DNA of 64,000 nt from IMG/VR virus record IMGVR_UViG_3300032007_004036. One strand, 5' to 3'. The position numbers and the translations under genes were made by a program. The notes below the pieces were generated by a model. It was not told the DNA's origin, ran no database searches, and saw only the letters and a list, made by a program, of their open reading frames with translations. Below, piece by piece: positions 13,427-16,667 of the stretch (the stretch's first letter is position 1; the number at the start of each line of letters is the position of its first letter). The DNA comes from an uncultured virus (IMG/VR IMGVR_UViG_3300032007_004036) (Duplodnaviria > Heunggongvirae > Uroviricota > Caudoviricetes).

Positions 13427-13581
13427 CATTGAAAACAACAATAGATTTTTATAACGAGGTAGGAATACCTTGCTATCATTGCAAATATGCATTTTCTCCT
13501 GCGTGTACGGATTGCATTGATTTGACGCTATGCCATATGTGCGATATTGCTGAAGATATGATACTGCGAGGTGATTATTGA
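13423..13581 (+). CDS. Small Cys-rich protein
   Basis: GGAGGAG RBS; three CxxC pairs; translated by hand. Confidence 0.55.
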   Translation: MTLKTTIDFYNEVGIPCYHCKYAFSPACTDCIDLTLCHMCDIAEDMILRGDY

Positions 13582-13910
13582 TGAAAACACTTAAATTTAT
13601 GGGACACTCAGACGATACCTTCGGCGAGTACGGCGCAACAATGGACGACGTTGACAATGCCGGCAGCGGCACACCTATCCAGTGTGTTGTCGAAGCGGAC
13701 GGAACTGCTCTGATAGTGACCGGACAGTACGATAGAAACGGCACCGGCACCTGGGACATTGGTATAAGCTTACAGGACGAAGACCTCTCTTATCCTGACT
13801 GGGATATACATATCAGCTTTGAAGGCTATACAACAGTCCTTGAAATAGACGTTCCCGACGACTTTGAGCTTACCTGGTACAATGACGGAGAGAGAATGGA
13901 GGGGTACTGA
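13578..13910 (+). CDS. Hypothetical phage protein
   Basis: 110-aa ORF coupled to neighbours. Confidence 0.7.
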   Translation: MMKTLKFMGHSDDTFGEYGATMDDVDNAGSGTPIQCVVEADGTALIVTGQYDRNGTGTWDIGISLQDEDLSYPDWDIHISFEGYTTVLEIDVPDDFELTWYNDGERMEGY

Positions 13911-14095
13911 TGCCGAAAGTAAGATCCCGCAAGTGGCTCGTCCCTCGCTACCGGATAAGGAATAACATCACCGGCGCGTACATACACGACACTCCCACAC
14001 AGCCGATGACCTTCCTCGACCACGCTGAGGCGTGGCGATACATAAAGCAGCACGGTCTTAACCCAGAGATCTATTTCGTGGAGGTCGAACGATGA
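13910..14095 (+). CDS. Hypothetical phage protein
   Basis: GGAGG RBS, TGATG overlap. Confidence 0.65.
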   Translation: MPKVRSRKWLVPRYRIRNNITGAYIHDTPTQPMTFLDHAEAWRYIKQHGLNPEIYFVEVER

Positions 14096-14574
14096 CTGCG
14101 AAAGAATACCTTGAACTCGCTTACAAGGTCGATAATGCTGTACAGCGCAGGCGAGAGGTCGCAAATAAGCATAGGGACAGCCTTTACGGACGAAGCATAG
14201 ACTATTCTGAAAGCGGCGGAAATCATAACAGCGGCGATACTTTAGGTGAGGCAATAGCCAGTATTTGCAGCTATGAGAAAGAAACTGATATGATTATTGC
14301 GGCTCTTGTAGATATCAGGTTTGAGATTGAGAAGTCCATTAATGCTGTTCCGAATAAAAAACAAAGGGATATTCTGACATATCGTTATTTACTCTATATG
14401 CCGTGGAAGAACAAATGCGACAAAGATACCGGCGAAATACTTGAGAAGGGAATAAAGGAAAAAACAGGATATTCTTCGGAATCAGTGTTTAAATTTCATT
14501 CAGCCGGATTGAAAAAAATTTCAGTTCCTGAAAAAATTACAGTAAAATACAGTGAAATACAGAAATATTTGTGA
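14092..14574 (+). CDS. ArpU/RinA-family (DUF1492-like) late transcriptional activator
   Basis: MTAKEYL...RDILTYRYL...sigma-4-like HTH; last gene before the packaging genes. Confidence 0.85.
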   Translation: MTAKEYLELAYKVDNAVQRRREVANKHRDSLYGRSIDYSESGGNHNSGDTLGEAIASICSYEKETDMIIAALVDIRFEIEKSINAVPNKKQRDILTYRYLLYMPWKNKCDKDTGEILEKGIKEKTGYSSESVFKFHSAGLKKISVPEKITVKYSEIQKYL

Positions 14575-14580
14575 TATGAT
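14536..14580 (+). promoter_or_regulatory. Late promoter: three TACAG repeats at 10-bp phase plus extended -10 TGaTATGAT
   Basis: TACAG at 14538, 14548 and 14558; -10 at 14575-14580; lies at the 3' end of the activator gene as known for RinA/ArpU-type regulators. Confidence 0.7.
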
Positions 14581-14737
14581 AAGAGCATGAAAGCAGGCGG
14601 AAAAGGTTATGGCTTTCGGGAGTGTTCCACATCCTCACTCCCTTTGCCTCCACCTTCTGCTTTCGGTTTCTACTATCATTACGATTTCTTCATTTGATTT
14701 TCTCCTGCGGTCAGCACCCTTCCTGACCGCGAATTTC

Positions 14738-14813
14738 GGCAGAGTGGAGCAGTTGGCAGCTCGCAAGGCTCATAACCTTGAGGTCGTTGGTTCAAGTCCA
14801 ACCTCTGCAACCA
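14738..14813 (+). tRNA. tRNA-Met(CAT), initiator (fMet)-like, CCA encoded
   Basis: 76-nt cloverleaf: acceptor GGCAGAG/CTCTGCA, anticodon arm CAAGG-CTCATAA-CCTTG, T arm GTTGG-TTCAAGT-CCAAC, ACCA end; 1x72 mismatch and A11-U24. Confidence 0.92.
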
Positions 14814-14911
14814 AAGGACTAACATTTTCAATTAACTCCTTATTTTTTCAGACAGAAGTACCTCGGCAACAGCTGGGGTATTTCTGTTATACGCGAAAGG
14901 ACGGTGAACTT

Positions 14912-15352
14912 ATGGCAAGACCGAGAAAATTCAGAAGCCCGAAAGCACTTGAAGAAAAGTGGGAGGAATTCAAAGAATACTGCAATAACAGGACAGTGCT
15001 GAGCCATGAGTTCAGTTCTAAAAACAGCGAATTCGTATCTGCTGAACTGAAGCGTTCGGTAACGTATACGATAGAGGGATTCTGCGTGTATTCAGGTATA
15101 TCAAGGCAGTCATTCTATGATTACTATGCGGAGAATGAACGGTTTGCTGACATCGTTACGCGCATGAAGGAAGAATGCGAGGCTGATGCCCGTGAAAAGT
15201 TTGAGCTTGGTGTGATACCGTCGCAGCTTGCGGGGCTCTGGATGTCAAAGTACGGCTACAGCACCAAGCAGGACGTCAACGCTAAGGTTGAACCGTCCGA
15301 GAAGCTTGCTGACGTAATGGATCAGATCGGCGGTGAGGGGCTTGAAGAATAG
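14912..15352 (+). CDS. terS: Terminase small subunit
   Basis: MARPRKF...YTIEGFCVYSGISRQ; directly upstream of terL. Confidence 0.85.
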   Translation: MARPRKFRSPKALEEKWEEFKEYCNNRTVLSHEFSSKNSEFVSAELKRSVTYTIEGFCVYSGISRQSFYDYYAENERFADIVTRMKEECEADAREKFELGVIPSQLAGLWMSKYGYSTKQDVNAKVEPSEKLADVMDQIGGEGLEE

Positions 15353-16667
15353 TTTTCCGCTCTCGCAGAAGTATATTGACTTCATCAACAGCGTCAATGG
15401 CGTGACTGCGGAATTTCTTGAGGGCACCACAGCCTCGGGCAAGACGACCGTCGGAGCAGGTATAAAGTTCATGAGAATGGTTTCGGCGTCACAGAAGAAG
15501 CTGCACGTTATAGCTGCCAAGACTACTGGCAAGGCTGAGGAGACGATAATTCAGCAGGACAACGGTATTCTCGACCTGCATCACAACGCTTCGTATTACG
15601 GCAACGGCGACAAGGACTTCAAGCTTCCACACATCAAGTTCGAGGGTAAGATAATCTATATCCTCGGCTATGATAATCGTGACAAGTGGGAAATGGCTCT
15701 CGGAGCACAGTTCGGCTGTGTATACATTGACGAGATAAACACTGCGGACATTGAGTTCGTGCGGGAGATATCCACACGTAACGAGTATCTGCTTGCTACG
15801 CTCAACCCTGACGATCCGTCGCTTCCGGTCTACAAAGAATTCGTTAACCGCTCCCGACCGTACAGCAAATATGCCGGAGATGTCCCCAAGGAGATAATGG
15901 ACGAGCTCCTGAAGGAAGAGCCGACGCCGCACTGGAAGTATTGGTTCTTTTCGTTCCTGGACAACCTAAGCCTGACCGCAGAGGACATCGAGCGCAAGAA
16001 AGCAGCAGCTCCGAAAGGAACTAAGCTTTACAAGAATAAGATACTCGGGCAGCGTGGCAAGGCAACAGGTGTTATTTTCGACTGCCGCGACAGCAATATC
16101 ATCACACCTCAGCAGGCGCGGGAGTACAAGTTCACGCTGTTCTCTGCGGCTCTTGATACTGCGTACTCTCAGACCTCGCCTGATACGATAGCTTTCACGT
16201 TCATCGGCATCACTGCTGACAGGAAGTGCATAGTGCTCGACGAGAGAGTTTTCAACAATGCAGAGCTGACAGTGCCGAAAACTCCGTCGGATATTCCTGT
16301 CGAGTATACAGCCTTCCTCGAGCTCAATCGAGAGCGCTGGGGATTTGCAAGAGACGTATATATCGACAGCGCAGATCAGGCAACAATTACCGAGTGTGGG
16401 AAATATAAGCGCCTGACAGGCAGCATATATAACTTTATTCCCGCCTTCAAAAAGACTAAGATCATCGACCGCATCCAGCTTCAGAGCGCATGGATGGCAG
16501 CCGGTGATTTTCTTATACTCAACCACTGCAAGACGATGATAGCGGAGTTGAACGTCTACAGCTGGAAAGAAGAGAAGTACGAGCCTGAGGACAGGAACGA
16601 CCACTGCATCAACTCCTGCCAGTATGCATGGCTCCCTTATAAAGCAATGATAGGAGCGATAAAATGA
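15342..16667 (+). CDS. terL: Terminase large subunit
   Basis: EGTTASGKT, YIDEIN, ALDTAY, DRNDHCINS. Confidence 0.93.
   Translation: MKNSFPLSQKYIDFINSVNGVTAEFLEGTTASGKTTVGAGIKFMRMVSASQKKLHVIAAKTTGKAEETIIQQDNGILDLHHNASYYGNGDKDFKLPHIKFEGKIIYILGYDNRDKWEMALGAQFGCVYIDEINTADIEFVREISTRNEYLLATLNPDDPSLPVYKEFVNRSRPYSKYAGDVPKEIMDELLKEEPTPHWKYWFFSFLDNLSLTAEDIERKKAAAPKGTKLYKNKILGQRGKATGVIFDCRDSNIITPQQAREYKFTLFSAALDTAYSQTSPDTIAFTFIGITADRKCIVLDERVFNNAELTVPKTPSDIPVEYTAFLELNRERWGFARDVYIDSADQATITECGKYKRLTGSIYNFIPAFKKTKIIDRIQLQSAWMAAGDFLILNHCKTMIAELNVYSWKEEKYEPEDRNDHCINSCQYAWLPYKAMIGAIK

Follow-up and report, generated by a model that had tools for sequence, protein, structure and literature searches.

What fills the 337 nucleotides (nt) that separate a late-gene regulator from the small terminase gene terS in an uncultured caudoviricete (IMG/VR record IMGVR_UViG_3300032007_004036)? 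We analyzed a stretch of 64,000 nt from this virus, here called the window, in which the gap covers positions 14575 to 14911. An earlier examination of the sequence (the original prediction) had read the gap as an array of trans-acting antisense RNAs built from three modules, each a CAT followed by CTCC that resembles the reverse complement of a translation start, with hairpins and a phage tRNA among them. We find that a modular leader cassette travels among many Clostridia phages and that the interval from 14587 to 14911 is one of its copies; the three modules are, in our reading, mostly by-products of this cassette rather than gene-specific antisense seeds. With a probability that we put at roughly 60%, the interval is an untranslated, processed leader acting in cis for the late operon, with the packaging and head genes, of this rumen phage.

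A leader cassette shared among Clostridia phages

A search of our collection with the arms of hairpin 3, the stem-loop that precedes terS, returned 54 loci, in 23 of which (21 unique) the 32-nt form lies beside a tRNA; a search with a 17-nt CU motif, described below, returned 75 loci, 68 of them unique. The 62 tRNA-Met genes that ARAGORN identified in the pooled loci represent 38 unique cassettes from Clostridia phage contigs, the window copy being L297. In the common order, an extended -10 element stands about 7 nt before hairpin 1, which is followed by 35 to 60 nt of U/C-rich single strand, hairpin 2, a further 5 to 7 nt, and the tRNA-Met; the trailer of the tRNA contains a pyrimidine box, and hairpin 3 and the first late gene come last.

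Both neighbors of the cassette change from phage to phage. Upstream lie at least four kinds of gene plus repeat, namely, phrog_36 genes with TACAGT repeats, DUF1492 or sigma-70-region-4-like genes with ATGTCC repeats, and two unassigned kinds; some of the cassette-linked regulators give weak matches to DUF1492 or sigma-70 region 4. The first genes behind the cassettes belong to two terS families, are HNH-like, or give way to a G-rich element with a portal-like gene behind it. Because upstream genes and first genes both vary, the cassette has been exchanged as a unit, and the leader moves between phages independently of regulator and structural genes.

Such a late leader is apparently undescribed so far: a literature search with keywords and three motif 16-mers, with subscription-only papers and supplements outside its scope, returned no account of it. 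Against Rfam 15, the window from 13500 to 16000 gave, besides the tRNA, only sub-threshold matches at chance level (E of 0.29 to 9.1), and eight phage loci gave tRNAs and two sub-threshold matches (PsrR1, E of 0.62; tmRNA, 15.6 bits versus 47). The remark in the original prediction that no named system has this layout agrees with the lack of an Rfam family match besides the tRNA.

Hairpins and strand polarity

The hairpins of the cassette are RNA structures of the + strand. On that strand the gap folds with a z score of -4.4 (0 of 100 shuffles as good), versus -2.1 on the minus strand. Hairpin 1 (14589 to 14664, from predicted folds) is the 5′-terminal stem-loop of the leader and begins at +1 to +3. 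Its base stem covaries among cassettes (AGAAAGCAGGCGG/CCGCCU.CU.CU, AGAACUCAGGCGG/CCGCCUGAG.UUCU, and AGAGAUCAGGC/GCCUG.UCUCU), and its apical part, formed in the window by GGGAGTG (14619 to 14625) and CACTCCC (14636 to 14642), is free to vary between lineages. The tract that follows (14665 to 14706, + strand) is predicted to be unpaired, and over 33 cassettes it consists of 49% U, 25% C, 17% A, and 9.5% G. Hairpin 2 (14707 to 14730, + strand; GCGGTCAG-8 nt-CTGACCGC in the predicted fold) ends 7 nt before the tRNA. A stable hairpin stands 4 to 9 nt before the tRNA in 35 of the 38 cassettes (p ≤ 0.05 versus shuffles; mean z, -3.8), built from about a dozen unrelated stem sequences as judged by eye.

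Hairpin 3 (14851 to 14888, + strand), with 17 bp and a 4-nt loop, lies just 5′ of the terS ribosome-binding site and has 12 consensus pairs in alignment A2. Across 19 distinct sequences, 98.2% of alignment cells are paired, versus 84.5% after column shuffling (0 of 500 shuffles as good) and 46 to 52% when the partner strand is slid. Four of the 12 pairs have changed on both sides and are compensatory, and two conserved positions are mostly G-U, which on the opposite strand would be A-C. The late-promoter RNA region of the original prediction is thereby borne out by its promoter (see below), by the fold bias toward the + strand, and by the compensatory changes in hairpin 3; its three hairpins and its tRNA are likewise placed correctly, according to the folds, ARAGORN, and Rfam. 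A stem enclosing the tRNA, formed by the upstream tract and the trailer, was considered and rejected, as it reached p ≤ 0.05 in 3 of 38 cassettes, which is chance level.

An initiator-like tRNA-Met

The tRNA at 14738 to 14813 (+ strand) is a tRNA-Met(CAT) with an encoded CCA, found by ARAGORN and matched by Rfam RF00005 at 59.5 bits against a threshold of 29. Bacterial initiator tRNAs are marked by the lack of a Watson-Crick pair at position 1:72 and by an anticodon stem whose lower end has three consecutive G-C pairs. In the window tRNA, position 1:72 is a G1.A72 mismatch, and 27 distinct cassette tRNAs retain a mismatch at this position, either G.A or C.A; initiator-type tRNAs of the host family have C.A there. 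The foot of its anticodon stem reads A-U, G-C, G-C, and with only two G-C pairs the tRNA is therefore called initiator-like rather than a proven initiator. Some relatives keep the GGG/CCC anticodon stem (L250, L266, L273, and L338). In four of four host-family genomes the nearest cellular tRNA is a tRNA-Met with C1.A72 and GGG/CCC, at 82 to 87% identity, the 87% belonging to the initiator-type tRNA of G017. The window tRNA is real, and by this kinship it is closest to the initiator type. Among cassette tRNAs in general, the anticodon stem is often weakened (AGG/CCU), and some relatives have an altered anticodon loop (TTCATGC).

The three CAT…CTCC modules

All three modules exist where they had been reported: CAT 14630 to 14632 with CTCCC 14638 to 14642 (module 1), CAT 14691 to 14693 with CTCCT 14702 to 14706 (module 2), and CAT 14823 to 14825 with CTCCTT 14836 to 14841 (module 3). 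The pattern CAT-N5-12-CTCC occurs three times in 14575 to 14911, compared with a mean of 0.18 in 5,000 dinucleotide shuffles (P[≥3] = 0.0014, an optimistic value because the pattern was defined after the data had been seen). On the + strand of the 64-kb window, only one other 337-nt stretch, at about 35.5 kb, holds at least three.

The modules differ in what they are made of and in how far they are kept. Module 1, housed in hairpin 1, is structural, a stem strand plus a variable loop: its CTCCC forms the 3′ side of the apical stem and pairs with GGGAG (unpaired probability of about 0), its CAT lies in the loop, and this apical and loop sequence is present in only 2 of the 38 unique cassettes. 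Among the 33 cassettes whose start could be assigned, module 2, in the single-stranded tract, keeps its strict pattern in 3, and just as many show the reverse order; the module looks like a remnant of the U/C-rich tract that holds the CU motif in relatives. Module 3 lies in the tRNA trailer or spacer (14814 to 14850, + strand). Here the strict pattern occurs in 17 of 38 cassettes, the relaxed pattern in 31, and the reverse order in none; the 17 strict cases are all close relatives with one type of hairpin 3. A pyrimidine box (CTCC, CCCC, CTTCC, or CCTTT) within 30 nt of hairpin 3 is present in 37 of 38 cassettes, and a CAT in the spacer is present in 35. Module 3 is a conserved CAU plus pyrimidine box beside hairpin 3 that probably acts in cis.

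With only module 3 conserved, the proposal of three antisense seeds against translation starts is not supported. Of the architecture expected in relatives, a CAT-CTCC motif with a hairpin and variable seeds, module 3 and its hairpin are kept, modules 1 and 2 are rarely kept, and the seeds show no target-specific variation. What is conserved is a generic, anti-Shine-Dalgarno-like pyrimidine box without target-specific seed variation. Nor is there special complementarity to start regions within the window: when the modules and the single-stranded tract were paired by RNAduplex with the 212 start regions of the window, none did better than shuffled sequences, shuffles of the three modules being as good in 24, 6, and 19 of 30 trials. 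Reverse-complement look-alikes of a ribosome-binding site plus ATG in a pyrimidine-rich leader are thus weak evidence for antisense action unless seeds are conserved and targets exist.

Reading frames over the leader

The absence of a credible + strand reading frame, as originally claimed, needs qualification. An open frame does run from 14609 to 15352, crossing the tRNA and leaving 101 codons open before the terS ATG. Relatives do not preserve it, those with the same terS having 5 and 20 open codons (shuffle P of 0.0097), and we rejected it as a chance frame. On the minus strand, the "MKKS-stop" peptide ascribed to module 2 is real as sequence, although it is the in-frame tail of a 48-amino-acid (aa) open reading frame (ORF; 14825 to 14679) that starts at the ATG of module 3, with AAGGAG-N10-ATG on that strand. 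The 48-aa product has no PHROG or Pfam match. Minus-strand micro-genes were rejected as a candidate: ORFs from the module 3 ATG occur in all three frames relative to the tRNA, measure 10 to 72 aa, and share no common peptide.

Promoter and gene context

The gene before the leader (14092 to 14574, + strand) encodes a 160-aa late-gene transcriptional regulator that matches phrog_36 ("transcriptional regulator," E of 1.5e-8) and has no match in Pfam or NCBIfam. Its relatives occur in assemblies and metagenome-assembled genomes (MAGs) of Oscillospiraceae, Ruminococcus, Faecalibacterium, Blautia, and other Clostridia; in IMG/VR, the protein of L002 is 99% identical and that of L003 is 69% identical. 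Despite the 99% identical regulator, L002 has a partly different leader and a different terS. Within the 3′ end of the regulator gene, 10-bp direct repeats (TACAGTAAAA, TACAGTGAAA, and TACAG; 14538 to 14562, + strand) are kept in L002, L003, and L004, with regulator identity down to 63 to 69%. These repeats are candidate binding boxes of the regulator that may replace a -35 element. Direct repeats of this type, TAC(A/T)GT(A/G)AAA in 3 to 5 units of 10 bp, abut the extended -10 in two phage groups whose leaders differ (the window and the group of L034 and L043 to L103) and are probably binding sites of phrog_36-type regulators.

The promoter scan placed an extended -10 element, TGTGATATGAT, at 14570 to 14580 (+ strand), as the end of a promoter-like site GTGAAA-17-TATGAT with TG, and relatives also have a TGnTAnnnT element at equal distance from the start of the leader. 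The predicted transcription start, which is also the shared 5′ boundary of the cassette (14587 to 14588, + strand; alignment A1), was assigned to 14587 because this lies 7 nt beyond the -10 and because cassette similarity begins there; similarity to contigs with other upstream DNA (loose ends in public runs X20 and X15) starts at this position. The public runs, one RNA library (X20) and three DNA runs, were assembled as contigs in which strands and ends are unreadable, and those containing the window stretch are bovine or other animal gut metagenomes.

Behind the leader, terS (14912 to 15352, + strand) is the first late gene (phrog_606, E of 9.4e-18; Pfam GP3_package, 58.2 bits), with TerL and portal genes downstream. 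Its Shine-Dalgarno sequence, read directly as GAAAGGA at 14895 to 14901, and its start codon at 14912 to 14914 together span 14895 to 14914 on the + strand. At the DNA level, phage GenBank records match only the tRNA and a short stretch of terS and contain no annotated relative of the leader. A promoter-like site on the minus strand (15397 to 15370; TTGACG-16-TATACT, 10 of 12 matches) lies in the terS/TerL overlap and faces the leader; the scan found 4 promoter sites overall versus 1.9 expected.

The CU motif and a host small RNA gene

In relatives of the window cassette, the single strand mostly carries a 21-nt CU motif, GTCTCCTTTCTTTTGTTCTAC, which is predicted to be unpaired (mean probability, 0.72; at least 0.5 in 22 of 27). 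The motif is invariant over 17 to 21 nt, while both flanking hairpins have diverged completely. The window and L001 lack its core: nhmmer with the profile of the host small RNA (sRNA) described next (A3) gave no hit at E ≤ 10. Compared with L299, which has the same apical hairpin, the window retains just ..TTTCTAC.. and has lost the core.

The same 21-mer, with at most one mismatch, occurs in 110 of 401 genomes of the family of Oscillospiraceae MAG G004, almost always once, and the reversed control occurs in none. By inspection, 29 of 30 fetched loci (among L391 to L425; e.g., L398:1451-1575) hold a complete small gene with a TTGACA-17-TATAAT promoter, a variable 5′ hairpin, a U/C-rich single strand of about 55 nt, and a G+C hairpin with a T-run. 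The single strand has 28 invariant columns in alignment A3, including a block ..GTTGTCTCCTTTCTTTTGTTCTACAC..; this block, single-stranded between a 5′ and a 3′ hairpin, is the mark of the Oscillospiraceae CU-motif sRNA and is absent from the window. In four loci a methionyl-tRNA synthetase gene lies downstream on the same strand, and other neighbors encode pyruvate:ferredoxin oxidoreductase, UvrC, peptidase M16, and aldose epimerase. Because these neighbors are ordinary chromosomal genes and the hairpin 3 pattern is absent from the 401 genomes (never as a hairpin, with two non-hairpin chance matches only), we take the loci to be host genes and not prophage leaders. Seven of them gave nothing above threshold in Rfam 15 beyond tRNAs (and one sub-threshold mir-2 match), and the literature search, within the scope given above, found no description of the sRNA and no match to the motif 16-mer. 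This major gut and rumen family thus has an apparently undescribed single-copy sRNA gene whose invariant core measures about 28 nt, with at least 110 carriers among the 401 genomes sampled.

The host profile also finds the phage leaders, with E of 2.8e-12 over 60 profile positions in L311 and 1.3e-8 in L002/L293, and the matches extend well past the 17-mer used for fetching. By this measure, the leader of the relatives is kin to the host sRNA. In four genomes of the family, a 9-nt stretch of the CU motif, CTCCTTTCT, recurs at the 16S 3′ end together with the spacer bases directly after it, and a core that resembles the 16S tail gives a testable hypothesis on global control of translation initiation. 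According to our classifier, the complement of the motif is the ribosome-binding site of real genes in 19 of 68 motif loci, two of which (L343 and L369) are actually leader cassettes without a recognized tRNA. Sites nearly complementary to the motif in five host genomes (at most 3 mismatches in 19, or at least 16/19) were about as numerous as those of the reversed control and did not exceed it.

The motif also occurs outside the cassette proper. It precedes tRNA-Leu genes within tRNA arrays of phage contigs of 135 to 162 kb (L311, L313, L320, and L345), in the same order of hairpin, motif, hairpin, and tRNA. In L315 (418-540) and L317 (415-615) it forms standalone units, with a strong sigma-70-type promoter, the motif at the 5′ end of the transcript, and then a hairpin; the L315 unit ends in a T-run terminator, L317 has one further downstream, and no tRNA or gene follows either unit. 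These two units look like phage-borne sRNA genes.

What the leader may do

The reading that we prefer, a processed leader acting in cis, starts from the observed anatomy of the cassette, its conservation, covariation, + strand polarity, and modular exchange, and the kinship of its tRNA; what it adds, by analogy with tRNA maturation and with 5′-terminal stem-loops in Firmicutes, is a start site, an RNase P cut, a trailer cut, and protection by hairpins. Transcription would start at about 14587 from an extended -10 promoter that depends on the regulator, and the RNA would fold at once into hairpin 1, the U/C-rich strand, hairpin 2, the initiator-like tRNA-Met, the trailer, and hairpin 3. RNase P cleavage at 14737/14738, together with trimming of the tRNA 3′ side within the trailer, would yield three products: a 5′ RNA of about 150 nt capped or protected by hairpins 1 and 2; the tRNA, which would add initiator-type tRNA late in infection; and the late mRNA, whose new 5′ end would be guarded by hairpin 3 beside the terS ribosome-binding site. 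For the pyrimidine box we consider an action in cis most likely, either in processing or in access to the first ribosome-binding site; in a 150-nt fold, UCCUU at 14837 to 14841 pairs with AAGGA at 14897 to 14901 of the terS Shine-Dalgarno sequence. If this is correct, temperate Clostridia phages combine RNA stabilization and the provision of initiator-type tRNA in one untranslated leader, to which most relatives add a third function, a look-alike of a host sRNA.

Several observations weigh against this reading. The conserved single-stranded tracts, that is, the CU motif of the relatives and the CAU plus box of the spacer, point to a sequence-specific partner that it does not name, and the presence of the motif in a standalone host sRNA gene and in the L315 and L317 units is easier to reconcile with a trans-acting RNA than with a leader alone. 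Pairing between the box and the Shine-Dalgarno sequence of the first gene appears in just 4 of 12 minimum-free-energy folds (those of the window, L293, L300, and L374). Pairing of the 5′ flank with the Shine-Dalgarno sequence beat shuffled flanks at 0.05 in 0 of 8 cassettes (fractions of 0.07 to 0.90), the eight being those with an identifiable first-gene start, and the hairpin finder passed over many. Finally, the contig of RNA library run X20 over 14587 to 14644 also carries unrelated upstream sequence; since its contigs include upstream DNA, they are uninformative on the start site and are not evidence of transcription.

A trans-acting anti-Shine-Dalgarno RNA would answer some of these points: the 5′ fragment released by RNase P, and perhaps the trailer, would be a phage copy of the host sRNA and would either pair with Shine-Dalgarno and start regions or titrate away a factor recognizing sequences like the 16S tail. 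The layout permits the release of flanking RNA by tRNA processing, as the original prediction had suggested, and this is plausible for relatives whose leader holds the host sRNA core. A 5′-terminal hairpin, an accessible strand, and a 3′ hairpin are the architecture of a stable sRNA, and the invariance of the core in a chromosomal gene, the profile matches to phage leaders (including those of the sibling L002/L293), the 9 nt shared with the 16S end, the ribosome-binding sites complementary to the motif, and the standalone units all lend the idea plausible, if indirect, support in the relatives. The window leader, however, lacks the core, its modules 1 and 2 are not conserved, the searches of window start regions and host genomes gave nothing beyond their controls, and a generic anti-Shine-Dalgarno RNA would strike the phage's own late genes too, so that we regard this explanation as doubtful for the locus. 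Hardly less tentative is a broader evolutionary proposal, in which phages of rumen and gut Oscillospiraceae-type Clostridia would have captured the host sRNA into their late leader and replaced its terminator by an initiator-like tRNA. RNase P would then make the 3′ end of the sRNA while transcription continued into the late genes, and the leader would reprogram initiation late in infection, by acting as a sponge for Shine-Dalgarno sequences or by luring away a factor reading the 16S tail, with CAU…CUCC modules 2 and 3 of the window as surviving or alternative seeds.

Composition and chance offer a further explanation, in which the leader would be pyrimidine rich for an unrelated reason, such as a rut-like C>G tract for Rho loading or the avoidance of ribosome binding, and CAT…CTCC would have no function of its own. 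The single-stranded tract is indeed 74% pyrimidine with little G, shuffled pyrimidine-rich flanks pair equally well with Shine-Dalgarno regions, and modules 1 and 2 belong to a pattern chosen post hoc and are not kept in relatives. We nevertheless think this unlikely, since three motifs are reached in 0.14% of dinucleotide shuffles (a figure flattered by that choice), since the spacer CAT and the box keep one order across more than a dozen unrelated spacers as judged by eye, and since the motif of the relatives stays invariant between diverged hairpins. It is much harder still to see the modules as minus-strand translation starts that serve micro-genes or a regulatory mini-ORF running antisense to leader and tRNA. 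The AAGGAG-N10-ATG start of the 48-aa ORF, the CAT-then-box order that is never reversed, and the promoter-like site facing the leader would fit, but the peptides resemble each other only where they mirror the tRNA, the spacing is unsuitable (2 to 4 or 16 to 18 nt) in several lineages, three conserved G-U pairs of hairpin 3 would become A-C mismatches on the minus strand, and the ORF would overlap a functional tRNA gene. We give as little credence to an attenuator or antitermination site, with hairpin 1 or 2 as a leader terminator or as an rrn- or nut-type boxA-boxB that is read through once the regulator has modified RNA polymerase. Distant relatives (L004 and L100) do form terminator-like hairpins immediately behind a promoter of the same kind, and the combination of variable regulators with one constant leader is reminiscent of Q/qut control in lambdoid phages; a scan of 13800 to 15600, however, found no intrinsic terminator (G+C hairpin plus T-run) on the + strand, and hairpin 2 is followed by 5 to 7 mixed bases without a T-run and then by the tRNA. 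An rrn-type boxA was rejected as a candidate, the rrn leader and spacer element of four host-family genomes, CCTTGAAAATTGAACAA, being unlike both the leader and the CU motif.

Variant and related leaders

Some cassette variants have no tRNA recognized by ARAGORN (L302, L318, L343, L369, L370, and also L268), and in some of these a shorter sequence ending in ..GCACCA takes the place of the tRNA. In L268, hairpin 1 leads to one CAT…CTCC tract and then directly to hairpin 3. A second family of late leaders (L034, L043, L044, L048, L073, L085, and others) stands behind the same repeat-type promoter and combines a short 5′ hairpin, T rich in its tail, with several pyrimidine tracts containing CTCC and with further hairpins; these leaders apparently carry other tRNA-like genes. 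Across all pooled loci, ARAGORN also returned Ser, Thr, Leu, and other tRNAs. On the 3′ side of hairpin 3 in eight loci (L003, L004, L256, L264, L279, L291, L296, and L309), a conserved GGGGGGAGG-(2-4 nt)-CCCCC is followed about 30 nt later by CGTCACTGCTCA(A/T)ATTTCTCGCTGAAAGG and then by a portal-like gene; several contigs end nearby, and the element may be a genome end of the cos type or another RNA element.

Comparison with known systems

Similar in gene order is the RinA/ArpU/Alt-type late control of temperate Firmicutes phages (for RinA, PMC3152322), in which a small regulator gene is reported likewise to lie directly before the promoter that drives terS and the morphogenesis genes. The window differs in a regulator that matches phrog_36 only and in a structured leader of about 325 nt with a tRNA between the promoter and terS.

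In lambdoid phages, the late transcript begins with the PR′-tR′ "6S" leader, and Stx phages place tRNA genes behind the late promoter, ahead of the first late genes. The window shares with them an untranslated leader that follows the promoter and holds tRNA, along with variable regulators before a constant leader. It differs in having no terminator or qut-like signal, in its Gram-positive host, and in its single initiator-like tRNA, and conserved hairpins like those flanking this tRNA are not known from lambdoid phages.

Firmicutes mRNAs can be stabilized by 5′ stem-loops of the ermC and aprE type, and RNase Y sites lie upstream of stem-loops. Hairpin 1, at most 3 nt from the predicted 5′ end, resembles such stabilizers, and hairpin 3 resembles the guides of hairpin-dependent processing in its place just past the predicted trailer cut and just before the first ribosome-binding site. 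Compared at the level of sequence, hairpin 3 is conserved in both sequence and structure, which is more than a pure stabilizer needs.

Among regulatory RNAs, RsaE/RoxS and RNAIII-type sRNAs of Firmicutes expose C-rich or pyrimidine motifs complementary to Shine-Dalgarno sequences, as the accessible pyrimidine motifs of the cassette would do. The leuZ external transcribed spacer is reported to be a regulatory RNA that arises as a by-product of tRNA processing. The cassette is set apart from all of these by having no match to those families in Rfam and by placing the candidate RNA 5′ of a tRNA in a phage late leader. At its 3′ end the gene of the CU-motif sRNA of the host (L391 to L425) is bounded by a T-run terminator, and the phage version by a tRNA; the window copy has no core. 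The leader of its relatives shares with that sRNA the 21-mer and its flanks and the same succession of a 5′ hairpin, a U/C strand, and a 3′ hairpin.

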